DNA of 64,000 nucleotides from Escherichia coli (GCF_003790525.1 NZ_CP033635.1); one strand, 5' to 3'; numbered from the stretch's first letter, positions 1,035 through 28,672 are shown. Notes: generated by a model from the sequence alone, not told the origin. Numbers and translations: made by a program.

Positions 1035-1199
1035 TTATCTTGTCATTGTGGAAAGACCGACATCCATAGCTTTGGATGGTACCTGCCACCGTAAAGTTCT
1101 GGTTAACAACTAGTTGAGTGGATTCGCGTTTAAACTCTGCGCTGAAATTTCCTTTTTTCATTGGAGCATCTGTGTTGTTCTAAGGTGAGCATATTACCT

Positions 1200-1650: not shown

Positions 1651-1778
1651 GATTCTCCATTAACGCTTACCTTTTCTCAGGCTATTTTTGATTTTTTTTG
1701 CTTTTCCCCGCCACTTTATGGTGATTATCACATCAATATACATCGACAGATATTAACGTAACTGAAGTGAGGTGAAGC

Positions 1779-2993
1779 ATGAAATTTGAACGCCATCATG
1801 AAATATTGAAACGACTCAGTAAATTCGGTTCTGTAAAAGTATCCGATCTGTCCAATAGCCTCAATGTAACGAAAGAAACTATTCGATCAGATCTTAATGA
1901 ACTTGCCAGACTTGGCTATCTGACTCGATGTCATGGCGGTGCTTTTATCGTCCTAGACTCGCTTGATACTATTGCGAAAAATGAAATCGCTTATGCGCTT
2001 GAAAATTATGATACAGCCCAGGGAATAAAAAAAGGCCACTCAACTATGAAAAGTCAAGTATGCGTTATTGGTTCGTTTAATGTTGATATCATCAGTTATT
2101 TGCCGAGGCTTCCCACTATCGGAGAATCGCTTCTGGCAAGTAATTTTATATTTTCACCGGGGGGAAAAGGTTGTAACCAAGCGCTGGCAGCAAGCTTTGC
2201 CGATACTGATGTTTATTTCATAACAAAAGTAGGTACAGATCACTTTAGTGATTATGCGATCAACTTTATGAATTCGTCTAAGATTTATAAAAGTATAATT
2301 TATCAAACGAAAGAAACGCAAACCGGAACTGCCACGATCCTTGTTAATGAAGGTACTGGCGATAATGTTATTGCGATCTATCCCGGTGCCAACATGACAA
2401 TGTCGTCCGATGAAATAACTATTCAGAAAGAAGCGATTATTAATTCTGATGTCATACTTCTGCAGCTCGAAACAAATTATACCGCTCTGCAACAAGCGAT
2501 CACATTGGCGCAAAAAAACAGTATCCCGGTCATTATTAACCCGGCACCCTATAATGATATCGTCAACGAACTTATTCAGGATGTTGATTATATCACCCCC
2601 AATGAAACAGAAGCTGGTTTACTGTCCGGCATAGACGTACACGATCTTGAATCAGCTAAACGAGCTGCAGAAGCTATCCACAATAAAGGGGTAAAAAACA
2701 CGGTTATCACGCTCGGTAGCAAGGGCTCACTCGCATTTGATGGCAAAAAATTCATTCATTCGCCAGCGTTTCCAGCGGTCGTTAAAAATACGGCAGGAGC
2801 CGGGGATGCTTTTAACGGCGCTCTGGCATCAGGACTTGCGAAAGGAAAATCACTGGAATCAGCACTGTGTTATGCCAGTGCCTTTGCATCCCTGGCGGTG
2901 GAGACAAGCAATGCTTCCGACATGCCTGAACATGAATCTGTGATACATCGAATTCAGAGTATACATTATCAGCAAACTATTTTTACGCATTAA
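1779..2993 (+). CDS. DeoR-type HTH domain fused to PfkB/ribokinase-family sugar kinase
   Basis: 404-aa ORF; N-terminus HEILKRLSKFGSVKVSDLSNSLNVTKETIRSDLNEL is DeoR-like; C-terminus has PfkB features (GGKGCNQA, NTAGAGDAFNGALA). Confidence 0.75.
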   Translation: MKFERHHEILKRLSKFGSVKVSDLSNSLNVTKETIRSDLNELARLGYLTRCHGGAFIVLDSLDTIAKNEIAYALENYDTAQGIKKGHSTMKSQVCVIGSFNVDIISYLPRLPTIGESLLASNFIFSPGGKGCNQALAASFADTDVYFITKVGTDHFSDYAINFMNSSKIYKSIIYQTKETQTGTATILVNEGTGDNVIAIYPGANMTMSSDEITIQKEAIINSDVILLQLETNYTALQQAITLAQKNSIPVIINPAPYNDIVNELIQDVDYITPNETEAGLLSGIDVHDLESAKRAAEAIHNKGVKNTVITLGSKGSLAFDGKKFIHSPAFPAVVKNTAGAGDAFNGALASGLAKGKSLESALCYASAFASLAVETSNASDMPEHESVIHRIQSIHYQQTIFTH

Positions 2994-3006
2994 GAAGGGA
3001 CAGAGA

Positions 3007-3765
3007 ATGAATAACACCAAAAAATCACTAAAGGTGCTCTTTATTGGAGAATCCTGGCATATTCATATGATTCATTCAAAAGGATATGACAGTTTTACCT
3101 CAAGTAAATATGAAGAAGGTGCGACCTGGTTACTCCAATGTCTGAAAAATAGTCAGGTAGATGTCACCTATATGCCGGCACATACGGTACAAATTGCCTT
3201 CCCTGAAGATGTGGCACAGTTAGAACAATATGATGCCATCGTTATTAGTGATATTGGTAGTAATACTTTCCTGCTACAAAATGATACTTTTTATCAGCTT
3301 CGCATAAAACCAAACGCTCTCGAACTGATTAAAGAATATGTGAATAACGGTGGTGGGTTATTGATGATTGGCGGCTATCTCTCATTCATGGGAATTGAAG
3401 CAAAAGCCAATTATAAAAATACAGTTCTGGCTGATGTGCTCCCGGTTACGATGTTAGATGGTGACGATCGTGTCGAAAAACCAGAGGGTGTTATTGCACA
3501 GCCATCACAACCTGACCATCCGGTTATTAAAGGGTTCTCTGAATATCCTTTTTTCCTAGGTTATAACCGGGCGATCGCTAAAGAAAATGCTGAGGTGGTA
3601 TTAACAATAAACAACGATCCATTACTGGTCTTTGGTAACTATCACAACGGGAAAATAGCCTGCTTTATGAGTGACTGTTCACCGCACTGGGGTACACAGC
3701 AGTTTATGTCCTGGCCGTTCTATACCGCGTTGTGGGTAAATATACTGACTCATATTGCAAGATAA
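3007..3765 (+). CDS. Class I glutamine amidotransferase-like (ThuA/DUF1355-type) protein
   Basis: 252-aa ORF 14 bp after the upstream gene; motif NNGGGLLMIGGYLSF suggests a GATase1-like fold; family assignment tentative. Confidence 0.55.
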   Translation: MNNTKKSLKVLFIGESWHIHMIHSKGYDSFTSSKYEEGATWLLQCLKNSQVDVTYMPAHTVQIAFPEDVAQLEQYDAIVISDIGSNTFLLQNDTFYQLRIKPNALELIKEYVNNGGGLLMIGGYLSFMGIEAKANYKNTVLADVLPVTMLDGDDRVEKPEGVIAQPSQPDHPVIKGFSEYPFFLGYNRAIAKENAEVVLTINNDPLLVFGNYHNGKIACFMSDCSPHWGTQQFMSWPFYTALWVNILTHIAR

Positions 3766-3821: not shown

Positions 3822-4787
3822 ATGAAAAAGAATAAGTACTCAACTCCCTTATGGATGCTTGCCACGATTCTTGCGGGTATGCTCTCCCCTATGCAATCAG
3901 CGGTGAATGGTCAATTAGGTCACTGGTTACAGGACGGTAATGCATGCGCAGTTATCTCCTTTGCCAGTGGTTTAGTCGTGATGTTTTTTATTATTATGGC
4001 GCGAAAAGAAACCCGGCAACAATTTGCGGCAATTCCTTCTCTGATTAAAAACCGAAAAGTTCCTCTCTGGAACTGGTTTGCCGGTCTCTGTGGAGCGATG
4101 GTGGTATTTTCTGAAGGCGCATCAGCCAGCGCACTCGGGGTCGCAACGTTTCAGACCGCACTGATCTCCGCGCTATTGCTGTCTGGTTTACTTTGCGATC
4201 GCTTTGGTATCGGTGTCGACGAGAAAAAATACTTTACCCCTTATCGCATCATCGGTGCATTATTTGCGGTTATTGCTACGATTTTTGTTGTGTCACCGCA
4301 GTGGCATTCTACCTCTTTCATTTTACTTGCCATTCTTCCGTTCTTAGCTGGTTTGCTTGCAGGATGGCAGCCCGCTGGAAATGCAAAAGTAGCTGAAGCT
4401 ACGGGATCCATGCTGGTTTCAATCACCTGGAATTTCATCGTTGGATTTTGTGTTTTAGGCACAGCGCTAGCTATTCGTGTCGCATTAGGGCACGTCACTG
4501 TTCAATTACCAGATGTCTGGTGGATGTATCTTGGCGGCCCGCTTGGACTAATGTCTATCGGTTTAATGGCCATTTTGGTCAGAGGTCTTGGGTTACTGAT
4601 GCTGGGGGTTGCTTCAACGGCGGGCCAGTTACTGGGATCAGTATTGATTGACGTATTAATTCCATCGCTGGGCAATACCGTTTATCTGGTCACGATCATC
4701 GGAACACTGTTTGCACTGGTCGGTGCAATTGTTACCACTATTCCGGAATACAGAGCCTCGAAAACAATGAAGAAAATGGAGGTATAA
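3822..4787 (+). CDS. Polytopic inner-membrane protein (tandem DUF606/YdcZ-like, DMT-superfamily-like)
   Basis: 321-aa ORF with about 10 hydrophobic segments and an internal two-fold repeat; RBS-like aggattg upstream. Confidence 0.6.
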   Translation: MKKNKYSTPLWMLATILAGMLSPMQSAVNGQLGHWLQDGNACAVISFASGLVVMFFIIMARKETRQQFAAIPSLIKNRKVPLWNWFAGLCGAMVVFSEGASASALGVATFQTALISALLLSGLLCDRFGIGVDEKKYFTPYRIIGALFAVIATIFVVSPQWHSTSFILLAILPFLAGLLAGWQPAGNAKVAEATGSMLVSITWNFIVGFCVLGTALAIRVALGHVTVQLPDVWWMYLGGPLGLMSIGLMAILVRGLGLLMLGVASTAGQLLGSVLIDVLIPSLGNTVYLVTIIGTLFALVGAIVTTIPEYRASKTMKKMEV

Positions 4788-14720: not shown

Positions 14721-16024
14721 GGAAGAAGTTGATATGGTGGTTGCCGGACAACAGCGCTCCTGGATTGACTGCTGCATCACTCAACCACGCTGAATATCAA
14801 AGGAGAGCGTTACCGGTTAAAAGAGAAACGTAAAGCTGTGGTGATGACCCAAAACGCAACGCCTGTCAGTGAGGATGAAATGGTGAAAAGCGGACAGCAT
14901 CAGTAACGGAAGTATCTTAGCGGGTACGAAAATGGCAGGATCGTGACATTGACAGAATATCTCCTGATCATCCTGAATGACTGCAGTTGCTGTAGAAAAG
15001 TAAGCTGTCTCCACCCACGGCACCACTTAACAGGCATTCCGTAACTTCCCCCAGACTTACTATGACGCATTATCGGTGCACTGAAAACGGGAGAGTGCGC
15101 TTAAAACCGCAGACCGCATGCGGGTGTTACTGCATGACAGTCTGGCCGTATTGTGAGATGTCGGCAGGAACCGATGTCCGCGCAGGGGGGAACTTCCTGC
15201 AGTACCTGACGCTTCAAATGGTATTAACCGTAGGGTGTTGTTGGTTCCGGATCGCGGAAATGGGAGCACAGGTCTGCTACGGGGTGTACCTCTGACAGTA
15301 AATCCGGCTCGCTCATCTGACAGCCTCTCTCCCGGAAAAGACCAAAAATGAGATCGTCTCCTCAACAGCAGAGAAGAGGTCTTGACAGACAGGCTACATT
15401 GCATACGATTTATGAAGAAAAAGACAGCAAATATGGAGGTTATAGCGGAGAATACCCTACGAAATTCCTATGAAAAACGATTGAAAAAAATATCAAATTC
15501 GATTCGTTTTTATATGCTTTTTGGGAGCGTGGCGATGACGAACTGTTGCATGTGCAGAGGAGAATGCACCCGGAAGCACCAGAATCATCCAGAAAGGCAG
15601 AACGATTACGCATCAAACCAGGAGACAGCAATATCAAGGTAATATACTGATTTAAAATGAATTTACAGCAATACGTGAAAACATTTTTTACTTAAAGGAG
15701 ACAGATGCGCTGAAGAGAGTGCAGGTATTTTTATATAAAAATGAGAAGTTTACGGGATGTATATCCGGCACACTATGACCGGAGAATATCAGTCAAGCTT
15801 AAAAAGACAATAAATACAGTGAGTTAAATACACAGAGAAAACGTAGTATCAGAGGGTACATCTTACAACAGAGACTGAATTTCCGGTTTTTCATAACCGG
15901 CGCATTCCGGAAAGTGCAGGCGGCCCGGAGGTTTTCTGACGCCACTACCTGGTAGATTGTTCTGTACATCATGTACGGAGGTTTTTGTTTGCTTTTTTAA
16001 AATCTGCAAATGTGAGAAAAGCAG

Positions 16025-17188
16025 GTGAGGTGTATTGTGGGAAAGGAACTGGATGATATCTGCACCAGCTGTCCGTATATCGATACTGTAAAACGGCACA
16101 AACAACAGCTCGGTGCCATAGAGGAATATACACAGTGGTTAAAAAAAGAACCACGGGCATCTTATTTTTTTCTGTTCCAGCTGTATACCCGCATTCACAA
16201 TACATTTTTCTCCCAAAAGCAACAACTCCCGTTCACTCCCGGTGGCACTCACTGCCCGGAACCTGATGTCACCCTTCGGGACTTAACGCTTTCCCCTGGC
16301 TACCACAGTGATTATGCCCCTCAACCCATTCCGGAGATGGACAGTTCTGCTGTTGTTCCCCCAACTAATGAAAACACCTCGCCTCCGGAAGATACTCCCG
16401 ACAACACTCCGGCCGGAGGCAATACCGGACAAGCGGAAAAGACCAGAAACGCAGGACTCACACCCATTCCTGAAAAACGTTCAGGAATGCCCCCGGAACA
16501 TCTGCGGTTTGCCACGGGGTTTCCATCGCAACCGAAGATTGCCGGTCCCAGAGAAAAGCCGATGCGCACCGTGCATCCGGATAAAATCTACCGTGAAATT
16601 ATATGGTTCTGCTCCAGTTACCTGCTGAAATCCGGACCAGAGGCTACGAGGACGATTATCAACTCAGTATTCTCTGAATGGGCCAGCATAAACAATGATT
16701 ACCCCTCCCCCTTTTCGTGGGTGGACAGCAGGGACAGTGAACAGTGTGACTGGTTATGGAACGCCATGCAGATCCGGTGTGTGGGAACCCCGCTGAATCC
16801 CCTTACCCCGGAGCAGAAATACTGGTTTGCCTGCGCCACGTTTGATAACTGGGAGGGCTGGAATGAGCAACAGGTACAGTTTTTACTGGAAAGTAATCCC
16901 AGACGGAACAGAGCGAAGTTTACGCAGGTCTCCTTCCAGGCCCCCAGGATTCAGCATAAAGCGATTCTTCTTGATGAGCTGAAAAGTGCCCGGGAGCAAC
17001 AAAAAAGGCGTGATGAACGTGCTGATGGTTCCGTCCCTCTGAAACTGTCCGGAAAAATCCACAAACAGCTTGAAAGTATTGCCCGAAGTCGTGGTGTCCT
17101 CCCAAAAAAACTGCTGAATGAAATGATTGAGCAGGCGTACCATGATTTGGTGGCAACCAGGCAGAACAGCCAAATCGATTCCAGATAA
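16025..17188 (+). CDS. Hypothetical protein with Pro/Thr-rich linker and possible C-terminal ribbon-helix-helix segment
   Basis: 387-aa ORF with GTG start (uncertain); low-complexity PPTNENTSPPEDTPDNTPAGG; C-terminal KLSGKIHKQLESIARSRGVLPKKLLNEMIEQAYHDL resembles an RHH DNA-binding motif. Confidence 0.4.
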   Translation: MRCIVGKELDDICTSCPYIDTVKRHKQQLGAIEEYTQWLKKEPRASYFFLFQLYTRIHNTFFSQKQQLPFTPGGTHCPEPDVTLRDLTLSPGYHSDYAPQPIPEMDSSAVVPPTNENTSPPEDTPDNTPAGGNTGQAEKTRNAGLTPIPEKRSGMPPEHLRFATGFPSQPKIAGPREKPMRTVHPDKIYREIIWFCSSYLLKSGPEATRTIINSVFSEWASINNDYPSPFSWVDSRDSEQCDWLWNAMQIRCVGTPLNPLTPEQKYWFACATFDNWEGWNEQQVQFLLESNPRRNRAKFTQVSFQAPRIQHKAILLDELKSAREQQKRRDERADGSVPLKLSGKIHKQLESIARSRGVLPKKLLNEMIEQAYHDLVATRQNSQIDSR

Positions 17189-17213
17189 TTTCAGACAGAT
17201 ATTATTTCCGTGA

Positions 17214-17256
17214 ATCCCCCGCCACCTTTCCGGTGCGCGGGGTTTTGTCTTTTTTC
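17214..17256 (+). terminator. Putative rho-independent terminator
   Basis: GC stem (cccgc ... gcggg) followed by ttttgtctttttt, just after the 387-aa ORF. Confidence 0.45.
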
Positions 17257-17271
17257 ACCGGGAATACATGT

Positions 17272-18144
17272 ATGAATCCGTCTGATGCCATTGAGGCAAT
17301 TGAAAAACCGCTCTCCTCCCTGCCTTACTCACTTTCCCGTCACATCCTGGAACATCTGCGCAAACTCACCAGTCACGAACCCGTGCCTGGCATTATGGGT
17401 AAAAGCGGGGCCGGTAAATCCTCACTCTGTAATGCGCTGTTTCAGGGGGAGATCACCCCGGTCAGTGATGTTCACGCCGGCACCCGGGAAGTGCAGCGCT
17501 TCCGTCTGAATGGCCATGGTCACAGCATGGTTATCACTGACCTGCCCGGGGTGGGCGAGAGCCGGGACAGGGATGCAGAGTATGAAGCCCTGTACCGTGA
17601 CATTCTGCCCGAACTGGACCTGGTACTGTGGCTGATTAAAGCCGATGACCGTGCCCTGTCTGTGGATGAGTATTTCTGGCGACACATCCTGCACCGGGGA
17701 CATCAGCGGGTACTGTTTGTGGTGATGCAGGCCGATAAAACGGAGCCCTGCCATGAATGGGATATGGCCGGTATTCAGCCTTCTCCCGCACAGGCACAGA
17801 ACATTCGCGAAAAAACGGAGGCGGTATTCCGTCTGTTCCGGCCCGTACATCGGGTTGTTGCCGTATCGGCCCGCACCGGCTGGGAACTGGATACGCTGGT
17901 CAGTGCGCTCATGACAGCACTTCCCGACCATGCCGCCAGTCCCCTGATGACCCGCCTGCAGGACGAGCTGCGCACGGAATCTGTCCGCGCTCAGGCCCGT
18001 GAACAGTTTACCGGTGCGGTGGACCGGATATTTGACACGGCGGAGAGCGCCTGTATTGCCTCTGTTGCACGCACGGTTCTGCGTGCCGTCCGTGACTCGG
18101 TGGTCTCTGTTGCCCGCGCGGTATGGAACTGGATTTTCTTCTGA
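17272..18144 (+). CDS. YeeP/YfjP/YkfA-family prophage GTPase, apparently intact
   Basis: P-loop GKSGAGKSSLCNALF and G3 DLPGVGES; family recalled from CP4-44/CP4-57/CP4-6; start set at the ATG giving MNPSDAIE (ORF extends upstream to a GTG). Confidence 0.8.
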   Translation: MNPSDAIEAIEKPLSSLPYSLSRHILEHLRKLTSHEPVPGIMGKSGAGKSSLCNALFQGEITPVSDVHAGTREVQRFRLNGHGHSMVITDLPGVGESRDRDAEYEALYRDILPELDLVLWLIKADDRALSVDEYFWRHILHRGHQRVLFVVMQADKTEPCHEWDMAGIQPSPAQAQNIREKTEAVFRLFRPVHRVVAVSARTGWELDTLVSALMTALPDHAASPLMTRLQDELRTESVRAQAREQFTGAVDRIFDTAESACIASVARTVLRAVRDSVVSVARAVWNWIFF

Positions 18145-18261
18145 ACCCGGTGGTGATGTACCAGGCTGTTGTTACAGATTTTTAACTCCATGAAAACACT
18201 ATGCAAACGCAGCCATACCCGGGTTGTCCCCTTGCGTTGTGTTTCTCAAGTTAATAGAATG

Positions 18262-18305
18262 CATCGATCGTTACTATCATATCGATCGTTATAAACGATC
18301 GTTTG
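18262..18305. promoter_or_regulatory. Cluster of three CGATCG-core repeats upstream of the dynamin operon (putative operator)
   Basis: catcgatcgtta (18262-18273), atcgatcgtta (18281-18291), and the 12-bp perfect palindrome aaacgatcgttt (18294-18305); 57 bp upstream of the dynamin start. Confidence 0.3.
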
Positions 18306-18361
18306 TAGTAAATGACCTCCTCCGTGGTTGTCATGAAAATGCGTCTTAGGAAGGTTAAATA

Positions 18362-20758
18362 ATGCACGAAAAGAACATCGCCCTGCTTTGTGATGAAGCC
18401 GACCGACTTTTGCAACTGAACATTAATCTGCTCCGGCAAATGGTTGAGGAGCCAGATGTGTTATCTGACAGTAAGAACGAAAACAGACTGCTTTTTGATA
18501 AACAGAAAGCACTGAAAAGAATTGAGGAGCTGGAGGGCGAACAAATCAAAACCGCCCGCAGGGAGATGGTGCTGGCTGTTGTCGGCACGATGAAAGCAGG
18601 CAAATCAACCACCATCAACGCCATTGTGGGGCAGGAAATTCTGCCTAACCGTAACCGCCCCATGACCTCTGTACCGACGCTCATCCGCCACGTTCCCGGA
18701 AAAACTGAGCCGGTTCTCCATCTGGAACATATTCAGCCTGTCCGCAATTTATTAATCACACTGCAGGAAAAACTCGCCACCCCGGCAGGACAGCAGGTCG
18801 CACAGACCCTGCAGCAAACCGGGGATACCCGCGAACTGCTGGATATTCTGACGGATGATGGCTGGCTCAAAAATGAATACCACGGGGAGGAGGAAATCTT
18901 TACCGGACTGGCATCGTTAAACGATCTGGTTCGTCTTGCTGCGGCAATGGGGACTGAATTTCCTTTTGATGAATACGCAGAAGTGCAGAAACTGCCGGTG
19001 ATCGACGTGGAATTCAGCCATCTGGTGGGGATGGATGCATGCCAGGGAACACTCACACTGCTGGATACCCCCGGCCCTAATGAGGCCGGACAACCGCAGA
19101 TGGAAGTGATGATGCGGGATCAACTGCAGAAAGCCTCTGCGGTTCTGGCTGTGATGGATTACACCCAGATGAACTCAAAAGCGGATGAAGACGTCCGTAA
19201 AGAGCTTAATGCCATTGCTGACGTATCAGCCGGCCGCCTGTTTGTACTGGTCAATAAATTTGATGAGAAAGACCGCAATGGCGATGGGGCAGATGCCGTA
19301 CGCCAGAAAGTTCCGGCAATGCTGAACAGCGATGTGCTGCCCGCCTCCCGCGTTTATCCCGGATCCTCACGCCAGGCATACCTGGCTAACCGTGCGCTTC
19401 ATGAGTTACGGAAAAACGGAACCCTTCCTGTTGATGAAGCCTGGGTCGATGATTTTATCAGAGGTGCCTTCGGTTGCATGAAAAAAGAATACGTCTGTAA
19501 AGACAGTGAACTGGCAACTGAAGGGGCGACAGACCTGTGGGAAGGCTCACTTATCGATCAACTGATAACGGAAGTCATACAGAGCTCACATTCCAGAGCT
19601 GCGGCACTGGCGGTTGACTCTGCCGCCGCAAAACTGATGCAGAATGCAGAAAATATCAGTGAATACCTGTTGTTACGCCATCAGGGGCTACAGCAAAGCA
19701 TTCAGTCACTGCAGTCGCATATCACCAGCCTGCTTGCGGATATCCGGGAAATCGCGGACTGTCAGGAGCAGATGACCACTGATGTCAGAATGGCCATGGA
19801 GGAGATCGATACTAAAACCCGGGAATTACTGACGGGGGTCTGCACCTCACTGGAAGAGGAGCTGAATGACTATTTCAGAAGCGGTAAACGCAAAGAACAG
19901 CAAATGCTGGAGGAAGAAGACGCAGAACAACGAAGGTCTCAGTCCGGATTATGGGGGAAAATTTCTCAATGGTCCGGTATCAACAACCAGGGCCGGGAGG
20001 ATTACAGGAAACGAGATTTTGCCCCGGACAGCCCCGAAATAAAATTCAGTGATCGCAGGGAAGCCCTTGAACTGATGACGCAAATCGAATCGACCGTGAC
20101 CAGCCTGCACCGTGAGGCTGAAGCACAGTTCCGGCCTGAGCTGGAGAAAATCGTCAGCGGGATTGAAACAGGTTTTCGTGGCACGGCCCTGTACGCCACA
20201 GAAAACATTGCCGGTCGCATCAATGCCCGCCTGGAGGATGAGGGCTTTACCGTAAAAATCAGTTTTCCGGCAGTCAGCCAGTTACAGACCCGGCTCGCGG
20301 TAAAAATAAATCTGAGTGCGCTTATGGAGGAAAGAACGGAGACCGTCACCCGTCGCCGTCGGCAGAGTGGCGTATGGGGAACCGTTTGTCGATGGTTTGG
20401 CACCAGTGACCTGGGCTGGGAAAACTATGACGAGGATGTGAGTCGCAGCGTGATCAATATCAACAAGGTCAGAGAGGAAGTTATGTCACTGACCCGGGCA
20501 TATTTCGGGGAGCTGCAGGCATCCATTGAGCAGGATATTAACCAGCCCGTCCGCCAGGAAATCGATGCCTTTTTCTGCGCATTCAGGGAGAAAGTTGAAC
20601 AACTGCGTAACACGCTGATTCAGAGCTCTGAAGATCATAAACGCGATCAGCAGGCGCAGGAACGGCTTACCGGGCGACTTCAGGCATTAAATGAAAGGGT
20701 TCCTGAGCTCATTACTGACAGTAAGGCGCTGAGGGAAGAGCTGGAGACAATGCTGTGA
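18362..20758 (+). CDS. Bacterial dynamin-like GTPase, CrfC/YjdA-like
   Basis: 798 aa; G1 GTMKAGKST, G3 DTPGPNE, G4 NKFD; N-terminal block REMVLAVVGTMKAGKSTTINAIVGQEILPNRNRPMT matches E. coli CrfC as recalled; long helical C-terminal stalk; RBS aggaagg. Confidence 0.9.
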   Translation: MHEKNIALLCDEADRLLQLNINLLRQMVEEPDVLSDSKNENRLLFDKQKALKRIEELEGEQIKTARREMVLAVVGTMKAGKSTTINAIVGQEILPNRNRPMTSVPTLIRHVPGKTEPVLHLEHIQPVRNLLITLQEKLATPAGQQVAQTLQQTGDTRELLDILTDDGWLKNEYHGEEEIFTGLASLNDLVRLAAAMGTEFPFDEYAEVQKLPVIDVEFSHLVGMDACQGTLTLLDTPGPNEAGQPQMEVMMRDQLQKASAVLAVMDYTQMNSKADEDVRKELNAIADVSAGRLFVLVNKFDEKDRNGDGADAVRQKVPAMLNSDVLPASRVYPGSSRQAYLANRALHELRKNGTLPVDEAWVDDFIRGAFGCMKKEYVCKDSELATEGATDLWEGSLIDQLITEVIQSSHSRAAALAVDSAAAKLMQNAENISEYLLLRHQGLQQSIQSLQSHITSLLADIREIADCQEQMTTDVRMAMEEIDTKTRELLTGVCTSLEEELNDYFRSGKRKEQQMLEEEDAEQRRSQSGLWGKISQWSGINNQGREDYRKRDFAPDSPEIKFSDRREALELMTQIESTVTSLHREAEAQFRPELEKIVSGIETGFRGTALYATENIAGRINARLEDEGFTVKISFPAVSQLQTRLAVKINLSALMEERTETVTRRRRQSGVWGTVCRWFGTSDLGWENYDEDVSRSVININKVREEVMSLTRAYFGELQASIEQDINQPVRQEIDAFFCAFREKVEQLRNTLIQSSEDHKRDQQAQERLTGRLQALNERVPELITDSKALREELETML

Positions 20759-21660
20759 CTTCACCATTTATTCAACAAATTGCTGATAACCGGGTATGTC
20801 AGGTACTCACCTGTCTTCCTGAAAAATTTGTGGTTGATTTCGCAAACGGAATCGATGTTGCACAGGAGCATATCCGCACGGCCGGAGAGCGCACGTTCTT
20901 CCGGCGTTTAAAAGAGGGGCTGACCGGCGAAGGCGCTGCACGGCAGAATGCCATCAATGCGTCGCTTGCACAGGGCGTTGAGGCGTCCCTGCGCTGGCTG
21001 ACGGAGATGACAACGTCACTTGCCACCACAAACTACGCGATTACCCGGGTAAACGACAGGGTCAGTTCACTGGTCAGTGATACAGCCAGGCTGGCGCATT
21101 ATTCCGCAGATACGCGGGAGCAGTTACTCACCCTGGCCGATCAGGTTCACCATAAACTGAATCATCTTGAAGAAAAACTCCACCGTGTTGACCAGGTTCA
21201 GCGGGCGCAGTTACATCTTGAGCAGATATTCTCATGGTGGAGCGCCGGGCGATATGCGTCATTTTCCCCTGCCGGACGTTGTTATGTGGCACTTGAAGAG
21301 CTTCGCTGGGGCGCGTTTGGTGATGTGATACGTCAGAGCGAAACAGGCCAGGTTAACCAGCTACTGGATATTCTCAGACATAAAGCATTAACGCAGATGG
21401 CACAGGAGAGTGGCGGTAGTGCAACCGTGCGTCTGAACACTCTGGACTGGCTTGGTGGTCAGGGCCGGGAGCAGGCAGATAACGAGTGGCATGACGCGAT
21501 TAACTGGCTGGGAGACTGGTGCAGTGAAGAGCAGCATCCGGTGATCTGGTCAACCACGCAGGCTGCAGAACACTTACCGGTTCGCATGCCTCGCCTCTGC
21601 TCTGCAGAACGCCTCTCTGAAAGTATGGTCGATGAAATATTTCAGAAGGGGGCTGCATGA
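20755..21660 (+). CDS. Dynamin partner protein (YjcZ-like, by synteny with crfC-yjcZ)
   Basis: 301-aa ORF; GTG start overlaps the dynamin stop (GTGA); mostly helical; family assignment rests on position, not recalled sequence. Confidence 0.7.
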   Translation: MTSPFIQQIADNRVCQVLTCLPEKFVVDFANGIDVAQEHIRTAGERTFFRRLKEGLTGEGAARQNAINASLAQGVEASLRWLTEMTTSLATTNYAITRVNDRVSSLVSDTARLAHYSADTREQLLTLADQVHHKLNHLEEKLHRVDQVQRAQLHLEQIFSWWSAGRYASFSPAGRCYVALEELRWGAFGDVIRQSETGQVNQLLDILRHKALTQMAQESGGSATVRLNTLDWLGGQGREQADNEWHDAINWLGDWCSEEQHPVIWSTTQAAEHLPVRMPRLCSAERLSESMVDEIFQKGAA

Positions 21661-22727
21661 GTACAGAAATGAAAACGGGGCTGGTGCTGTCCGGTGGCGG
21701 GGCGGTGGGCGCTTATCAGGCGGGAGTGGTTAAGGCACTGGCAGAGTGTGGTACACAGATCAGCATGGTTTCAGGGGCCAGCATTGGCGCATTCAATGGT
21801 GCCATTATCGCGGCCTCTACCGATCTGTCAGAAGCTGCCGTACGCCTGGAGGCGCTCTGGGATCATCTGGGGAATAATCAGGTGCTGTCGGTAAACAGAT
21901 TGGTTTACTTTTCATTGCTGAAAAAATTGTTCCAGGCAATGAACCTCTGCCAGATCCCCGGACGTGCAGGAGCACTGCTTACGACGCTTCTTCGCCATAT
22001 ATCGACAATCAACGGGTTTGACAATCTGATGGCTCAGCCGTTGTTGTCAGATGAGCCCCTGACAGCGCTGATGGATCATTATCTTGATACTGATGCTCTG
22101 GCAGACGGGCTACCGCTGTATGTGTCGCTGTACCCCACAGAAGGGGGCATGCAGGATATTATTGACTGCATTCGTGCTGAACTGGGTGTCGGAACCACGA
22201 AAAACGCCGTTTTTCAGCATATCCAGAGCCTGCCCCGCGGACAGCAGAAAGAGGCTCTGCTTGCGTCAGCCGCGCTGCCCCTGCTGTTCCGTCCCCGTGA
22301 GGTTCAGGGGACAATGTTCGGTGATGGTGGTATGGGAGGATGGCGAAATATGCAGGGAAATACCCCTGTGACGCCTCTGGTCGATGCCGGATGCAATATG
22401 GTGATTGTGACGCATCTGAGTGACGGTTCTTTATGGGATCGCCAGGCTTTTCCGGACACCACAATCCTTGAGATCCGTCCCCGGAAAAGGCTGAAATATG
22501 CAGGTGATGGTGGCAACAGCGGCGGTCTGCTCAGTTTTACATCGGCACATACCGACGCCTGGCGTCAGCAGGGCTATGAAGACACGATGCTGGCGATGGA
22601 GCATATCCGGAAACCGCTGGCAGCACGTCAGGCACTGACCCGGTCAGAGGCGGTATTGCAGAAAAGCCTGGATATAACGGAAGAGGCAGATTTGGCACTG
22701 AGAAACGCGATGGCCCGGATTAAATAA
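21657..22727 (+). CDS. Patatin-like phospholipase
   Basis: 356 aa; Gly-rich oxyanion SGGGAVGAYQAG, lipase GxSxG as GASIG, catalytic Asp in FGDGGM; ATG overlaps the upstream stop (ATGA). Confidence 0.85.
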   Translation: MSTEMKTGLVLSGGGAVGAYQAGVVKALAECGTQISMVSGASIGAFNGAIIAASTDLSEAAVRLEALWDHLGNNQVLSVNRLVYFSLLKKLFQAMNLCQIPGRAGALLTTLLRHISTINGFDNLMAQPLLSDEPLTALMDHYLDTDALADGLPLYVSLYPTEGGMQDIIDCIRAELGVGTTKNAVFQHIQSLPRGQQKEALLASAALPLLFRPREVQGTMFGDGGMGGWRNMQGNTPVTPLVDAGCNMVIVTHLSDGSLWDRQAFPDTTILEIRPRKRLKYAGDGGNSGGLLSFTSAHTDAWRQQGYEDTMLAMEHIRKPLAARQALTRSEAVLQKSLDITEEADLALRNAMARIK

Positions 22728-22743
22728 AGACGCCCCAAAGAAA

Positions 22744-22770
22744 CGCCACCGCCTGTGGTGGTGTTTTTCC
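22744..22770 (+). terminator. Putative rho-independent terminator after the patatin gene
   Basis: ccacc-gcctgt-ggtgg hairpin followed by tgttttt, 17 bp after the patatin stop. Confidence 0.5.
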
Positions 22771-23057
22771 TGTCTGGTGTTATTGAAAATATTTTCAGAT
22801 ATATATTACCTGAGAGAAAGTTTTACCCCTCACCTGTCAATTCACTCACTGGAAATTTAATTATGAAATTACCTGTAAAGTTATTAATGAGCCTTATATC
22901 TCTGGTCAGCGTTATTGCACGTGCCGGGGAATATAAAAATTACAGCCGGGATGAAATAAAATACTGGCGATATACATCATACAAGGGGGGGAAACTTCCG
23001 GAAGGTTTCACTGATGAGAAATTTTCCAGCGCCATTTACAACGGAAGAATATTTACA

Positions 23058-23546
23058 ATGAAACGTTTACATACCCTTATGTTATTTCTGGCGGTTCTGT
23101 TCACGGGCTTTAACTTTAACGCAGAAGCGGCTACCGTAAAACAAGCTCTTAGTTGTAACCCGGAAGCCTGGGCTGAACAACCTGGAGCGTGTCCATCAAC
23201 GTACGAGTTGTACGAAGGTGACGCTACCTACAAAGCCGCTATCGACAAAGCATTAAAACCGGTCGGACTGAGCGGCATGTTCGGTAAAGGCGGCTATATG
23301 GATGGCCCTGGTGGAGGTATCACGCCAGTAAACATTAACGGTACAGTCTGGTTCCAGGGCGACGGTTGCAAAGCCAATACCTGCGGCTGGGACTTTATCG
23401 TAACACTCTATAACCCAAAAACCCATGAAGTTGTTGGCTACCGTTACTTTGGTTTAGATGACCCGGCCTACCTGGTTTGGTTCGGTGAAATTGGCGTGCA
23501 TGAATTCGCGTATCTGGTGAAAAACTACGTAGCTGCGGTTAACTAA
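23058..23546 (+). CDS. Ivy-like (inhibitor of vertebrate lysozyme family) periplasmic protein, divergent
   Basis: Signal peptide MKRLHTLMLFLAVLFTGFNFNAEA; KAA...KGG...CKANTCGWDFIV aligns with Ivy KAA...KGG...CKPHDCGSQRIAV as recalled; an in-frame upstream ATG at 22863 also precedes a hydrophobic stretch. Confidence 0.5.
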   Translation: MKRLHTLMLFLAVLFTGFNFNAEAATVKQALSCNPEAWAEQPGACPSTYELYEGDATYKAAIDKALKPVGLSGMFGKGGYMDGPGGGITPVNINGTVWFQGDGCKANTCGWDFIVTLYNPKTHEVVGYRYFGLDDPAYLVWFGEIGVHEFAYLVKNYVAAVN

Positions 23547-23561
23547 TTTAAGGAGTCTATC

Positions 23562-23972
23562 ATGAAAACTTTTATCAAAACTTTACTCGTTGCTGTAACT
23601 ATTCTGTTCTCTGTCTTCGCTACTGCGAAACAAGTAAAACTGCCAAATAACATCAAATACGTTAATACTACAGAAGCGTTTTCCTGTACCGAAATTGACG
23701 GTATGAATTGCCAGACAAAGAATCAGTTCAACTATAAAGATAACAGCTATGTTTTCGTGCTTGAGCGTGGTGGTGCCTGGTGCTACGACTACACTGTCTC
23801 GGTAGTTAACCTGAAAACCGGGAAAGCACAAATGATTGAATACGGGGACAATCAACTGTGCTCAGGTAGCAACAAACCGTTCTTCGAAATCAAAAATGGC
23901 GTACCGACGGTAGGAGTCATCGACACATCCGGAAAACCTGTCGTTGTAGCCCAGGACAAACTTAAAATCTAA
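23562..23972 (+). CDS. Small secreted Cys-containing protein, hypothetical
   Basis: 136 aa; signal peptide ending ATA-KQ; four Cys; strong aaggag RBS; 15 bp after the Ivy-like gene. Confidence 0.6.
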   Translation: MKTFIKTLLVAVTILFSVFATAKQVKLPNNIKYVNTTEAFSCTEIDGMNCQTKNQFNYKDNSYVFVLERGGAWCYDYTVSVVNLKTGKAQMIEYGDNQLCSGSNKPFFEIKNGVPTVGVIDTSGKPVVVAQDKLKI

Positions 23973-24112
23973 GGAGTAAACCATGCGTTTCTCTGCACAT
24001 TATTAATATCAAAGGTAAATACAGCCCCAGCCATTGTTACCGGAAAGCCGCTTAATGCGTGGCTCGCCAGTGAAAGGCCTCTCAGACAATAAACCTTATT
24101 CATTTCACCCGT

Positions 24113-24148
24113 CAGGCCGCGTCTTCTCCGGGAGACGCGGCTTTTTTC
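24113..24148 (+). terminator. Rho-independent terminator
   Basis: gccgcgtcttctcc / ggagacgcggc hairpin followed by ttttttc. Confidence 0.6.
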
Positions 24149-24192
24149 ATTTATTGCACCAGTAAATCTTAACCACCGATAAGGAGCAAAGT

Positions 24193-25013
24193 ATGCGATT
24201 AGCCAGTCGTTTTGGTTATGCTGCAAACCAGATACGCCGTGACCGTCCGCTGACACATGAAGAACTGATACGCCATGTACCCAGTATTTTTGGGGAAGAC
24301 CGGCACATCTCCCGCAGTGAACGGTATGCGTACATTCCCACCATTACCGTCCTGGAAAATCTGCAGCGGGAAGGCTTTCAGCCGTTCTTCGCCTGCCAGA
24401 CCCGTGTGCGCGACCCGGGCCGCCGGGGATACACAAAACACATGCTGCGTCTGCGGCGGGCCGGAGAGATAAACGGAGAACATGTCCCTGAAATTATTCT
24501 GCTCAACTCTCATGACGGTACCTCCAGCTACCAGATGCTGCCGGGTTACTTCAGGTTCGTCTGCCAGAACGGGTGCGTCTGTGGCCAGTCTCTGGGGAAG
24601 TGCGTGTTCCACACCGGGGAAATGTAGTGGAGAAAGTTATCGAAGGGGCTTACGAGGTGGTGGGCGTGTTTGACCGGATAGAGGAGAAGCGTGATGCCAT
24701 GCAGTCGCTGGTCCTGCCGCCACCGGCACGCCAGGCGCTGGCACAGGCGGCACTGACTTACCGTTATGGTGACGAACATCAGCCCGTCACCACCGCCGAC
24801 ATTCTGACGCCGCGACGCCGGGAGGATTACGGTAAGGACCTGTGGAGCGCATATCAGACCATCCAGGAGAATATGCTGAAAGGCGGGATTTCCGGTCGCA
24901 GTGCCAGAGGAAAACGTATCCATACCCGGGCCATTCACAGCATTGATACCGACATTAAGCTCAATCGCGCATTGTGGGTGATGGCAGAAACGATGCTGGA
25001 GAGCCTGCGCTGA
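24193..25013 (+). pseudogene. DUF932 (YfjQ-like) prophage protein, frameshifted
   Basis: N-terminal part (24193-24627) and C-terminal part (24573-25013) both match YfjQ as recalled but lie in different frames; break near 24590-24625. Confidence 0.75.
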
Positions 25014-25094
25014 TGCCGTTTCCCTGAGTGAGGGAATCATTCAGCTTTCGTTCCTGAAAAACACACATTTATTTGTTATTTAAGGAGTTATCTC

Positions 25095-25574
25095 ATGAAA
25101 ACCGTTTCTCAGAATACCCCCACAATTTATTCAGCTACAACACCAGAGAATAATCCGCCTCAGTTGGTTGCCAGCCTCGTCCCTGATGAACAGCGCATCA
25201 GCTTCTGGCCGCAGCATTTTGGCCTCATTCCACAGTGGGTGACCCTGGAGCCCCGTGTCTTCGGCTGGATGGACCGTCTGTGCGAAGACTACTGCGGTGG
25301 TATCTGGAATCTGTACACCCTGAACAACGGCGGGGCATTTATGGTACCCGAACCGGATGACGATGATGACGAAACATGGGTACTGTTCAATGTCATGAAC
25401 GGTAACCGCGCTGAAATGAGCCCGGAAGCCGCCGGCATTGCTGCCTGTCTGATGACGTACAGTCATCATGCCTGTCGTACAGAGTGTTATGCCATGACGG
25501 TCCATTATTACCGGCTGCGGGATTACGCCCTGCAGCATCCGGAATGCAGCGCCATTATGCGCATCATCGACTGA
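25095..25574 (+). CDS. Anti-restriction protein, ArdB/KlcA (YfjX-like) family
   Basis: 159 aa; conserved position before the RadC-like gene in CP4-type islands; acidic DDDDDE stretch; RBS aaggag. Confidence 0.75.
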   Translation: MKTVSQNTPTIYSATTPENNPPQLVASLVPDEQRISFWPQHFGLIPQWVTLEPRVFGWMDRLCEDYCGGIWNLYTLNNGGAFMVPEPDDDDDETWVLFNVMNGNRAEMSPEAAGIAACLMTYSHHACRTECYAMTVHYYRLRDYALQHPECSAIMRIID

Positions 25575-25589
25575 ATGGAGAGAAGCACA

Positions 25590-26066
25590 ATGCAACAACT
25601 TTCCTTTCTGCCAGGAGAGATGACGCCCGGCGAGCGCAGCCTCATTCTGCGGGCCCTGAAAACCCTGGACCGCCATCTTCATGAACCCGGCGTGCCCTTC
25701 ACCTCCACCCGTGCGGCACGGGAATGGCTGATTCTGAACATGGCGGGACTGGAGCGTGAAGAATTCCGGGTGCTGTATCTGAATAACCAGAATCAGCTGA
25801 TTGCCGGTGAAACCCTCTTCACCGGCACCATCAACCGCACGGAAGTCCATCCCCGGGAAGTGATTAAACGCGCCCTGTATCACAATGCCGCTGCCGTGGT
25901 GCTGGCACACAATCACCCGTCCGGTGAAGTCACACCCAGCAAGGCAGACTGCCTTATCACGGAACGTCTGGTACAGGCACTGGGCCTGGTGGATATCCGG
26001 GTGCCGGACCATCTGATAGTCGGTGGCAACCAGGTTTTCTCCTTTGCCGAACATGGTCTGCTTTAA
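25590..26066 (+). CDS. yeeS: RadC-like JAB/MPN-domain protein (YeeS/YfjY/YkfG family)
   Basis: JAMM motif HNHPSG; start set at MQQLSFLPGEMTPGER with ggagag RBS (ORF extends 5 codons upstream). Confidence 0.85.
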   Translation: MQQLSFLPGEMTPGERSLILRALKTLDRHLHEPGVPFTSTRAAREWLILNMAGLEREEFRVLYLNNQNQLIAGETLFTGTINRTEVHPREVIKRALYHNAAAVVLAHNHPSGEVTPSKADCLITERLVQALGLVDIRVPDHLIVGGNQVFSFAEHGLL

Positions 26067-26128
26067 CCCGTCACAACCACATCACACCTGTTTTCACTTT
26101 TATCTTCTGTCTTCAGAGGTATCCCATT

Positions 26129-26350
26129 ATGAAAATTATCACCCGTGGCGAAGCCATGCGTATTCACCGTCAGCATCCGGCATCCCGTCTTTTTTCGTTC
26201 TGTACCGGCAAATACCGCTGGCACGGCAGTGCTGAGGTTTATACCGGTCGTGAAGTGCAGGATATTCCCGGTGTGCTGGCCGTGTTTGCCGAACGCCGTA
26301 AGGACAGTTTTGGTCCGTATGTCCGGCTGATGAGCGTCACCCTGAACTGA
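26129..26350 (+). CDS. yeeT: YeeT-family (DUF987) protein
   Basis: 73 aa MKIITRGEAMRIH...YVRLMSVTLN matches K-12 YeeT as recalled. Confidence 0.85.
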   Translation: MKIITRGEAMRIHRQHPASRLFSFCTGKYRWHGSAEVYTGREVQDIPGVLAVFAERRKDSFGPYVRLMSVTLN

Positions 26351-26423
26351 GTGGGAATTCTGATGAGCAGAATTATCGCCACTACCGGACCATTCTTAGC
26401 CGATTTTCTGTAAGGATTTTATC

Positions 26424-26792
26424 GTGTCAGACACACTCCCCGGGACAACACTTCCCGACGACAATCACGACCGCCCCTGGTGGGGGCTGCCCTGCACCGT
26501 GACGCCCTGTTTCGGGGCACGTCTGGTGCAGGAGGGTAACCGCCTGCATTACCTTGCCGACCGCGCCGGTATCAGAGGCCTGTTCAGCGATGCAGATGCG
26601 TACCACCTGGACCAGGCCTTTCCGCTGCTGATGAAACAACTGGAACTCATGCTCACCAGCGGTGAACTGAATCCCCGCCATCAGCATACCGTCACGCTGT
26701 ATGCAAAAGGGCTGACCTGCAAAGCCGATACCCTCAGCAGTTGTGGTTACGTTTATCTGGCTGTTTATCCGACGCCCGAAATGAAAAATTAA
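26424..26792 (+). CDS. cbeA: Type IV antitoxin CbeA (YeeU)
   Basis: 122 aa MSDTLPGTTLPDDNHDRPWWGLPCTVTPCFGARLVQEGNRLHYLADRAGIRG... matches CbeA as recalled. Confidence 0.9.
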   Translation: MSDTLPGTTLPDDNHDRPWWGLPCTVTPCFGARLVQEGNRLHYLADRAGIRGLFSDADAYHLDQAFPLLMKQLELMLTSGELNPRHQHTVTLYAKGLTCKADTLSSCGYVYLAVYPTPEMKN

Positions 26793-26880
26793 CTCTCCAG
26801 AATAGCCTTCTGCTACGGCCTGGTGTTTTCACCACGCCACTTTTCCATTTTTATATCTGCATATCAGGAAAATCTTCAGT

Positions 26881-27254
26881 ATGAAAACATTACCTGTATT
26901 ACCCGGGCAGGCGGCCAGTTCTCGCCCGTCTCCTGTTGAAATCTGGCAGATACTGCTGTCCCGACTGCTGGACCAGCACTATGGCCTCACACAGAATGAC
27001 ACACCTTTTGCCGATGAACGTGTGATTGAGCAGCATATTGAGGCAGGCATTTCACTGTGTGATGCGGTGAACTTTCTCGTGGAAAAATACGCGCTGGTGC
27101 TACCGACCAGCCGGGATTCAGCGCCTGTACCCGCTCTCAGTTAATAAACAGCATCGATATCCTCCGGGCTCGCAGGGCGACCGGCCTGATGACCCGCGAC
27201 AATTACAGAACGGTAAATAACATTACCCTGGGTAAGTATCCGGAGGCGAAATGA
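26881..27254 (+). pseudogene. cbtA: Toxin CbtA (YeeV), frameshifted
   Basis: First 73 residues match CbtA, then the frame ends at 27144; the expected C-terminus INSIDILRARRATGLMTRDNYRTVNNITLGKYPEAK is in another frame (27150-27254); consistent with a single-base deletion near 27103. Confidence 0.8.
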
Positions 27255-27445
27255 TGACACTGGAAGCCGACAGCGTTAACGTACAGGCGCTGGATATGGG
27301 GCACATTGTCGTTGACATTGATGGTGTTAATATCACTGAACTGATTAATAAGGCCGCTGAAAACGGTTATTCACTCCGCGTGGTGGATGACCGTGACTCT
27401 ACCGAAACACCGGCAACTTATGCCAGCCCTCACCAGTTGCTGTAA
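27251..27445 (+). CDS. yeeW: YeeW-like small protein
   Basis: 64-aa ORF overlapping the cbtA stop, in the position of K-12 yeeW. Confidence 0.45.
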   Translation: MMTLEADSVNVQALDMGHIVVDIDGVNITELINKAAENGYSLRVVDDRDSTETPATYASPHQLL

Positions 27446-27850
27446 GACAATGCAGTGATGCAGGGTATAGTGCCATTAACCACAGAAACAGCACTGTTGT
27501 CCTGTATTAAGCAGGCAAGAGAAGATGTCCTTACCCTGCGCCATCTGCAGCTTCTGCACCAGAACCGGTGAATCTCACTCAACAGGCTTCATTTCCCCTG
27601 ACGCCAGCCTGAATACAGCTGGCGTTTTCATTTATAAACAGAAAGGAAAACCGATAATAATGGAATGGACGCCCCGACCATGAAGCAACGGTAGGATATT
27701 ACTGATAAACCTTCCAGTGGAGGTGCGTTATGGCCGTTTTAACGATTAGCATTGACCTGACAAAAAATGAATTCCAAATCCACGGTCTGGGTAGGAACAG
27801 AAAAATCTAAGCTCAGAAAACGGATTAAAGTAAGCGTCAACGGAGCACCA

Positions 27851-27985
27851 TATTGACGCTTATTTATTGGTGAGAACTACGTTCCATGGCAGGAGTTCGT
27901 CAACACGGTTGGAGGGCCATTCCGGCAGTATGCTCAGAATATGGCGCAGATACGCTTCCGGATCGATACCGTTCAGACGGCAGGT
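27851..27985 (-). mobile_element. IS66-family terminal remnant (~135 bp), inverted relative to the 1200-1650 copy
   Basis: About 88% identical by eye to the reverse complement of 1515-1650 (ttatttattggtgagaactacgttccatggcaggagttc...). Confidence 0.45.
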
Positions 27986-28029
27986 GCCTGCTTTTCCGGC
28001 AACAAGCAGGAATCTCAGCGCTGAAGCAG

Positions 28030-28242
28030 GAATTAGAGGTAAAAACGCCCTACCGGGCCATGAATCACCCGGTCATTGGAGTAGTAACCAAAGCAGATTT
28101 AGCCAGCATGGAACAAATATCTTTGGTGAAATGTTGGTTACGGGAAGCTGGAGCGCACAACGTGTTAGTAACCAGTGCGGTTAATAACAATGGAGTTACA
28201 GAACTTTTTGCCTTGCTGCATACAGAAGAAGGCTGCCGCTAA
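28030..28242 (+). pseudogene. yoeF: PduV/EutP-like fragment (yoeF-like)
   Basis: C-terminal PVIGVVTKADLASMEQISLVKCWLREAGAHNVLVTSAVNNNGVTELF resembles EutP/PduV; N-terminus missing; position matches K-12 yoeF. Confidence 0.45.
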
Positions 28243-28342
28243 TTTCGATAGGTTCTCAGATGAGAATGATGACGGTGATACACAGATAAGAATCAATGAG
28301 CAATGAGGGTTGCCGGGCAACCCTCATTGAATAAAACAGGAA

Positions 28343-28672
28343 TTACTTCGCTTCGCCGTTTTTCATTTCGCCCATAGCTTTCAGCTTTTTGGAGATATCG
28401 CGGCGTTCTTTGGAGAGCTCGGCATTTTTGATGATGTAATCGTCAACGCGATCTTCATAGTCACCTTTCATGCTGGCGATGATGCCCTGGATTGCTTCAA
28501 CGCTCATCCCTGGCTTGATGTAATCGCTCAGGTTGTCCAGCAACAGGACGCGCTTCTGGTTGTCACGGATCTTTTTCTCAACGTCCTGAATTTCACGTTG
28601 CAGTTTGTTCTTACGACGGAACAGACGAACAAATTCCAGTACGTCCTGGAATGAAGGCTTGGTAGTTTCCAT
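28343..28672 (-). CDS. yeeX: YeeX (DUF496/UPF0265) protein
   Basis: [41 protein letters not shown]...; start set at METT (ORF extends 22 codons upstream). Confidence 0.85.

Follow-up and report, generated by a model that had tools for sequence, protein, structure and literature searches.

Between two conserved genes of a CP4-44-type integrative element, Escherichia coli carries an accessory-gene slot that is very probably modular, with a small repertoire of contents, rather than an open hotspot. We analysed this slot in a stretch of 64,000 nucleotides of E. coli DNA (GCF_003790525.1, NZ_CP033635.1), referred to here as the window, in which the element occupies the usual CP4-44 chromosomal site, adjoining yeeW-tmaR-yeeA-sbmC. 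The left anchor of the slot is a GTPase gene of the yeeP/yfjP family and the right anchor is a DUF932 gene. In the window the slot opens with a leader that carries an agn43/cah-type promoter and a predicted epigenetic phase switch, and the leader is joined directly to three genes, which encode a dynamin-like GTPase, a YjcZ-like protein and a patatin-like phospholipase (the trio). A pair of genes, one of them Ivy-like, lies downstream. All of these features are on the plus strand. Taken as a whole, the account that combines a modular slot, a phase switch and a defence trio is one that we favour on balance, and its parts are graded separately below.

Modules and arrangements of the slot

The borders of the modules were taken from blastn comparisons of the window with six other islands. 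Homology of the left arm stops at 18146/7, two or three bases past the stop codon of the GTPase gene, and the breakpoints 18146/7, 18358, 22812 and 24040 recur across independent islands. The block 18358-22812, which holds the trio and a terminator-like hairpin, is 95% identical to the block downstream of cah in O157:H7, where the gene order is GTPase-cah-dynamin-RdcB-like-patatin-DUF932. The O157:H7 island has the same arms and the same trio cassette as the window, but in it cah still separates the switch from the trio, and the Ivy-like gene and its partner are lacking. This pair (22813-24039) is also missing from E. albertii. The conserved right arm (24040-24192) starts at the last breakpoint and is common to islands that carry DUF905 instead of the pair. 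The GC content of the Ivy-like pair is 0.45, against 0.52-0.54 in the trio, and this difference suggests that the two have separate origins. Flanking direct or inverted repeats were sought at the module borders as a sign of site-specific insertion, and none that was convincing was found.

An earlier note on this DNA had placed in the slot a dynamin/patatin operon, an Ivy-like gene and a gene for a small secreted protein. Open reading frames for all of them were found there, and so was the YjcZ-like gene in the middle of the operon, which the note had left unnamed. Its statement that each unit has its own terminator stands in part. A terminator-like hairpin (22747-22763), found in a terminator scan, does close the operon, and the homology block ends just past it; the strong terminator found in the same way at 24114-24143, with a 13-bp stem, belongs to the conserved right arm, which every type of island has, and not to the cargo. 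The absence of a flu-like autotransporter was borne out, as tblastn with Ag43 and Cah found nothing in the whole 64 kb window, and coding similarity to YeeR, IrmA or DUF905 was not found in it either. The dynamin-like protein was considered as a diverged YeeR, and the Ivy-like protein (hypA) and its partner (hypB) as diverged IrmA; both candidates were rejected for lack of similarity, in the former case to full-length YeeR.

The two K-12 islands that had served the note for comparison are arranged as it described. In CP4-57, yfjP and yfjQ are adjacent, 91 bp apart, and in CP4-44, which lies at the same chromosomal site as the island in the window, flu (agn43) and yeeR stand between the GTPase gene and yeeS in the order yeeP'-agn43-yeeR-yeeS. 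The CP4-44 flu cluster, known from K-12, 042 and uropathogenic E. coli, has yeeP on its left, DUF932, antirestriction, yeeS, yeeT, cbeA/cbtA and yeeW genes on its right, and at its left edge a promoter and three-GATC switch homologous to those in the window. The window differs from it in the absence of the autotransporter, yeeR, irmA and DUF905 genes; the trio stands behind the switch and the Ivy-like pair takes the place of DUF905. A form of the slot with flu-yeeR-irmA-aec70-aec71 has already been described (PMC6480617), and the variability of the slot is itself partly known.

The arrangements in E. coli were drawn from about 14 loci that were inspected directly and from counts of junctions, out of 16,473 places at which the GTPase and DUF932 anchors occur. 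These places are distributed over 4894 of 5426 complete genomes, with a median of three per genome. The Ag43/Cah beta-domain was found in 4141 genomes of this set, yeeR-irmA in 2592, the 5' end of the dynamin gene in 2465 and the Ivy-like pair in 1882, and the switch is joined directly to the dynamin gene, as in the window, in 1981, with O104:H4 C227-11, ST131 and O103 RM8385 as examples. The window allele is among the commonest in E. coli. It has the order switch-trio-Ivy-like gene-hypB, and its ST131 version has ISEc12 within the Ivy-like gene. Elsewhere the switch is followed by the trio only (second island of O157 FRIK2455), by cah and the trio (O157, EDL933) or by a truncated cah and the trio (E2348/69). 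Slots without the trio include switch-agn43-yeeR-irmA-DUF905, a switch-agn43-DUF905 form with IS66 between the switch and agn43, a switch-cah form with a deletion that runs into yeeS, a switch with an autotransporter remnant alone, and the K-12 deletion form with a yeeR-yeeS fusion. Versions interrupted by insertion sequences (IS) were also seen.

Every slot inspected in E. coli is thus a combination, or a deletion derivative, of about four modules behind one promoter, namely Ag43/Cah, yeeR-irmA-DUF905, the dynamin trio and the Ivy-like pair. Within this sample yeeR-irmA never occurs together with the trio, nor DUF905 with the Ivy-like pair, and no open-ended run of unrelated inserts was seen. 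The slot was also examined in other species, at 31 loci. The same trio recurs in E. albertii. In other genera the GTPase and DUF932 genes are adjacent or are separated by 2-3.7 kb of yfjR/yfjS/yfjT homologues, yfjR encoding a WYL-domain protein. Searches of these genes against PADLOC, NCBIfam and PHROGs returned only families of unknown function, and the comparison with CP4-57 identified them as yfjR/S/T homologues. Since yfjR/S/T stand after DUF932 in K-12 CP4-57, the interval in other genera is a permutation of the backbone and not new cargo. The interval had been described as a variable cargo hotspot whose content differs between strains. Its content does vary, as the comparison of E. coli islands between the GTPase and DUF932 genes gives several arrangements; the variation is limited to about four modules, and other genera hold backbone genes.

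Two observations concern the region outside the interval. K-12 CP4-57 carries the known anti-phage genes abpAB, a GmrSD fragment and rnlAB upstream of the GTPase gene, and another inspected island (L003) has a type I restriction-modification system in the same position. The region upstream of the GTPase gene may be a better place to seek defence cargo in CP4-type elements.

The leader and its predicted switch

The promoter and switch in the leader were not mentioned in the earlier note. The leader (18147-18361, 215 bp) runs directly up to the start codon of the dynamin gene. It was aligned with the leaders of K-12 agn43, O157 cah, O113, E2348/69 and E. albertii, and it can be aligned with the intergenic DNA of yeeP-agn43 and of GTPase-cah. 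The promoter consists of a -35 hexamer TTGCGT (18232-18237; TTGTCC in K-12) and a -10 hexamer TAGAAT (18255-18260), separated by a 17-nt spacer. It is followed by an element resembling an OxyR site (18263-18300), the predicted epigenetic phase switch, with Dam GATC sites at 18266, 18284 and 18297. The K-12 agn43 leader also has three GATC sites, and the two sets align. Across seven aligned sequences, whose mean column identity is 67%, neither the promoter hexamers nor any of the three GATC sites vary.

Only 0.04 occurrences of the pattern GATC-N13-16-GATC-N9-GATC would be expected in 64 kb, and the window has one. E. albertii and the other E. coli islands searched for it have the triple GATC in the corresponding position behind the GTPase gene. 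Compared with the consensus for the OxyR tetramer, the segment 18263-18299 agrees in 16 of 20 positions; K-12 agn43, read in that register, agrees in 14 of 20, and none of 400 random windows exceeded 13. In agn43, OxyR bound to unmethylated GATC sites represses transcription, and Dam methylation blocks OxyR and turns the gene ON (PMC4872104, PMC2909390). Because the leader in the window keeps the agn43 promoter and the three-GATC OxyR site, the switch is probably functional and the operon phase-variable.

The gene irmA was reported to be co-transcribed with flu and yeeR (PMC6480617), and in O157 no terminator-like site was found between cah and the dynamin gene. On the simplest reading, a phase-variable promoter would make the slot an expression site, and the trio would be its first gene product in the window allele. 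A hairpin with a 12-bp stem and a T-run was observed just before the start codon of cah and agn43 (4248-4275 in the O157 cah leader, locus L002; also in K-12 agn43), and it looks like a leader terminator or attenuator.

The three-gene operon and its possible roles

The first gene of the trio (18362-20758) encodes a dynamin-like GTPase of 798 amino acids with G1, G3 and G4 motifs. It matches the NCBIfam model NF007368 (CrfC) over its full length (E 1e-166), but its 556 bits lie under the equivalog cut-off of 1146 and it is 33% identical to K-12 CrfC; it is a distant paralogue of CrfC/YjdA/RdcA and not the same protein. The second gene (20755-21660) encodes a YjcZ/RdcB-like partner of 301 amino acids (Pfam PF13990, E 5e-70; 30% identity to K-12 RdcB). 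The third (21657-22727) is annotated by RefSeq as a patatin-like phospholipase, of 356 amino acids, and is the predicted effector. Its GGGxxG (GGGAVG), GxSxG (GASIG, Ser42) and DGG (Asp223) motifs are intact and its homologues carry Pfam PF01734. No signal peptide or linkage to a secretion system was seen for it. The start and stop codons of the dynamin and YjcZ-like genes, and of the YjcZ-like and patatin genes, overlap by 4 nt, and the trio is predicted to be a translationally coupled operon. The K-12 pair CrfC/YjdA (RdcA)-YjcZ (RdcB) has the same two-gene order, overlapping stop and start codons and the same domain families, and aligns over the full length. Unlike the trio, the K-12 pair lacks a phospholipase and lies off mobile elements.

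Patatin homologues of 45-65% identity were found in Pectobacterium, Yersinia, Erwinia, Plesiomonas, Providencia, Enterobacter, Vibrio, Budvicia and Pseudomonas. Seven distinct chromosomal contexts outside E. coli were chosen from the best patatin matches, and in all contexts retrieved the dynamin and YjcZ genes precede the patatin gene in unchanged order. The Pectobacterium trio closes a CP4-like element, in which CbtA and DUF4942 genes precede it. Pseudomonas fluorescens has a BrxR-type WYL regulator, an integrase and a yeeP-like GTPase beside it. In Vibrio parahaemolyticus a SIR2_2+DUF87 pair is about 6 kb away, with umuDC and a group II intron between, and in Vibrio vulnificus a WYL gene lies immediately upstream and BrxL and PglZ genes downstream. 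The order in Enterobacter asburiae is integrase, WYL, trio, Mrr and PDDEXK_4. One group of metagenomic contigs has HsdM, HsdS and Mrr upstream and BrxR downstream, and a second has McrB upstream and WYL and PDDEXK_4 downstream. Defence-type neighbours are thus present in six of the seven contexts, a small sample with Pectobacterium as the exception, and a WYL/BrxR regulator is present in five. In Klebsiella, Enterobacter and E. coli, a version of the trio at 61% identity is carried by plasmids, both IncR and conjugative. The trio is a mobile cassette spread across Gammaproteobacteria. Since it adjoins restriction, bacteriophage exclusion (BREX), McrB, SIR2-HerA or WYL/BrxR genes in six of the seven contexts, we tentatively put it forward as a candidate anti-phage defence system, which we consider possible.

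Some names in the databases hide these families and are annotation errors. On a Klebsiella pneumoniae IncR plasmid (L055, 6000-10014) the dynamin gene of the trio is cut by IS1 and annotated as "dGTPase"; some sources name patatin fragments of the trio family "ferredoxin reductase"; and a homologue of the Ivy-like protein is apparently named DNA polymerase III subunit gamma/tau.

Two known defence systems offer partial likenesses. Eleos (formerly "Dynamins", LeoA/LeoBC) is an anti-phage system with two dynamins and no lipase. It shares with the trio a dynamin-superfamily GTPase, a small operon and an occurrence in defence islands; the trio has one dynamin and not two, and its PADLOC matches to LeoBC and LeoA are marginal (E 5e-8 to 4e-3, in the P-loop region only). 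CapV of CBASS (anti-phage signalling based on cyclic oligonucleotides) resembles the patatin in the window as a patatin-fold phospholipase that is the likely membrane-degrading output of a multi-gene system. Unlike CBASS, the trio has no cyclase or nucleotide sensor, and the CBASS lipase model gives 19.5 bits against a cut-off of 200 (E 5e-4). A description of a dynamin/YjcZ/patatin trio was not found in the literature searched, nor was anything relevant on YjcZ and phage or on CP4-44 as a hotspot of defence. What is new relative to that literature is the Ag43 switch before a different operon and the trio as a mobile cassette with anti-phage-like habits.

The account that we favour would run as follows. 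The Escherichia slot opens with the agn43 promoter and its Dam/OxyR switch, and whatever lies downstream would be expressed from this agn43-type promoter. Modules were probably swapped by homologous recombination between the conserved arms of the several paralogous islands within genomes, and the contents probably trimmed by deletions and IS insertions. In the window allele the autotransporter gene is absent and the switch is fused to the dynamin/YjcZ-like/patatin operon. Methylated GATC sites would allow the operon to be transcribed and OxyR on unmethylated sites would keep it silent, giving a mixed population. The GTPase and its partner might act as a membrane-associated sensor or regulator, by analogy with RdcA/RdcB, which activate the diguanylate cyclase DgcE. 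A trigger, such as a membrane perturbation induced by a phage, would then license the phospholipase, membrane lipid would be degraded and the infection would be aborted. The proposal that the GTPase and partner may sense a membrane event and license the lipase draws on two analogies, RdcA/RdcB as activators of a membrane enzyme and the patatin effectors of CBASS. The downstream pair of lower GC, separately acquired, would add a periplasmic Ivy-fold inhibitor and its partner. In its fullest form, this reading would make the trio an undescribed abortive-infection system that has captured the Ag43 Dam/OxyR switch in about a third of E. coli genomes, so that a heritable subpopulation is armed; in that form we regard it as doubtful. 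If it were true, phase-variable immunity would be a form of bet-hedging against the cost of a membrane-destroying effector.

Several points weigh against this account. With about 14 E. coli slots directly inspected, rarer contents could exist. The spacing between the first and second GATC sites is 1 nt shorter in the window than in agn43 and cah, and the hairpin with a T-run of the agn43/cah leader is absent from the window leader, so that regulation may differ from that of agn43. No experiment or methylation report on the locus in the window was found in the literature searched, and the E. coli methylome papers examined do not mention it. The link to defence is guilt by association, drawn from the seven chromosomal contexts outside E. 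coli, and what surrounds the trio in E. coli itself is not defence genes but genes of the backbone, for antirestriction, RadC and toxin-antitoxin proteins. No model in PADLOC-DB v2 matches the trio, which gave only weak LeoBC and phospholipase-effector matches, and relatives of the trio are absent from the phage collection and from IMG/VR as searched. CrfC and RdcA/RdcB, the nearest relatives with a characterised role, serve chromosome partitioning and the control of cyclic di-GMP, not immunity (PMC6510439; reference list of PMC7696260), and the known roles of the K-12 pair are clamp binding and the activation of DgcE.

The main rival to the defence reading starts from these relatives. The trio could be a lifestyle module tied to an aggregation adhesin, in which a pair like RdcA/RdcB regulates a membrane enzyme for envelope-lipid remodelling or biofilm signalling in ON cells. 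The dynamin and YjcZ-like proteins are indeed full-length paralogues of CrfC/RdcA and RdcB, and RdcA/RdcB activate the biofilm diguanylate cyclase DgcE (PMC6510439); in E. coli, moreover, the trio occurs only behind the agn43/cah switch, and in O157 it comes straight after cah with no terminator between. The identity to RdcA/RdcB is just 30-33%, however, the core crfC-rdcB pair has no phospholipase, and outside Escherichia the trio stands without an autotransporter, amid restriction, BREX, McrB, SIR2-HerA and WYL genes. We consider this role unlikely. The trio might otherwise serve virulence or vesiculation, like LeoABC of enterotoxigenic E. coli, with membrane remodelling by the dynamin and the phospholipase aiding the release of vesicles or toxin. 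It does lie in islands of the pathogenic lineages O157, O104:H4, ST131 and E2348/69, and its weak PADLOC similarity is to LeoBC and LeoA, which were first proposed as virulence factors owing to their location in a pathogenicity island. However, isolates of environmental, animal and commensal origin have the trio equally, as do Pseudomonas and Vibrio of soil and water, a Leo-type operon has since been shown to be anti-phage, and neither a signal peptide on the patatin nor a link to a secretion system was seen; a virulence role is very unlikely.

A different objection concerns the slot as such. The differences between islands could reflect the decay of one ancestral long array, with no gain of cargo and with the agn43-type leader as an inert leftover. 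A nested series from full cah through truncated cah to no cah fits such decay, as do the yeeR-yeeS fusion deletion of K-12, the island with an autotransporter remnant alone, the frequent IS insertions and the damage to the DUF932 and cbtA genes in the window. Decay alone would leave subsets, but yeeR-irmA and the trio, and likewise DUF905 and the Ivy-like pair, are alternatives in the inspected islands. The GC content of the Ivy-like pair differs, other taxa and plasmids carry the trio as an independently mobile unit, the leader has diverged around switch positions that do not vary, and the open reading frames of the operon are intact in about 2000 genomes. We regard decay as quite unlikely, and the modular slot with its switch and candidate defence trio remains the account that we favour.

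The Ivy-like pair, the flanks and the meaning of the slot

The Ivy-like gene (23058-23546) encodes a predicted secreted Ivy-fold protein. RefSeq annotates it from 22863 as a protein of 227 amino acids, a form with two signal-peptide-like segments, and most homologues are 160 amino acids long and start at the internal methionine at 23058. The N-terminal 65 residues (22863-23057) may derive from a small open reading frame fused to the gene or may extend it upstream in frame. Ivy crystal structures are the closest to the predicted fold. Ivy and the Ivy-like protein are both secreted and have a Cys-Lys-x-x-x-Cys loop followed by a beta hairpin at the same position. The loop reads CKPHDC in Ivy, CKANTC in the window and CKAHAC or CKSNAC in homologues, so that both cysteines and the lysine are retained but the histidine is not in the window allele. 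Searches gave no Pfam match even at E 10, and thus none to the Ivy family PF08816, and no Ivy among the PDB sequence matches. The family is apparently limited to E. coli islands. The partner gene (hypB, 23562-23972) encodes a small secreted all-beta protein of 136 amino acids with an N-terminal hydrophobic leader, for which no Pfam, PDB or fold match was found. It is always paired with the Ivy-like gene, and paired divergent alleles occur in other E. coli.

The left anchor (17272-18144) was identified by its open reading frame, RefSeq annotation and P-loop and DxPG motifs. The right anchor (24193-25013) is frameshifted and split into open reading frames at 24193-24627 and 24573-25013. A base-by-base comparison with E. 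coli FDAARGOS_497 (NZ_CP033850.1) showed that one G is missing from the G-run at 24594-24597; either the gene is a true pseudogene or the homopolymer was misread in sequencing. The same genome is 99.98% identical to the window over 3736-32242, with five substitutions and one indel, and it contains 17200-24700 as a 100% identical stretch. At 1-3741 the window is continuous where FDAARGOS_497 has IS2.

To the right the gene order is yeeS, yeeT, cbeA, cbtA, yeeW, a DUF957 fragment, an EutP fragment, tmaR, yeeA, sbmC and dacD, and from yeeS onward the window is 98.8% identical to the right flank of CP4-44 in K-12. The toxin gene of the CbeA/CbtA pair, cbtA (26881-27255), carries a frameshift according to the annotation of the near-identical reference record, and its antitoxin is intact. 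The island left of the GTPase gene is rich in IS fragments (IS66, IS2, ISL3, IS150), and several metabolic genes are truncated there. A search of 16000-28500 against Rfam gave no RNA family. Farther along, at 50000-56000, the GC content falls to 0.27-0.33 and the GC skew is strongly negative; the stretch lies downstream of sbcB and, on that ground, probably holds the O-antigen gene cluster.

If the account is confirmed, a very common operon of E. coli (2465 of 5426 genomes, among them ST131, O157 and O104:H4) would carry a defence-type genomic signature. Its combination of a mechano-GTPase with an adaptor and a lipase is unusual, and it would widen the connection of dynamins with antiviral immunity. 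The best-studied epigenetic switch of E. coli would, in most strains with the window allele, control something other than an adhesin, and this would bear on population heterogeneity, on phage sensitivity and on published results on Ag43 phase variation in non-K-12 strains.

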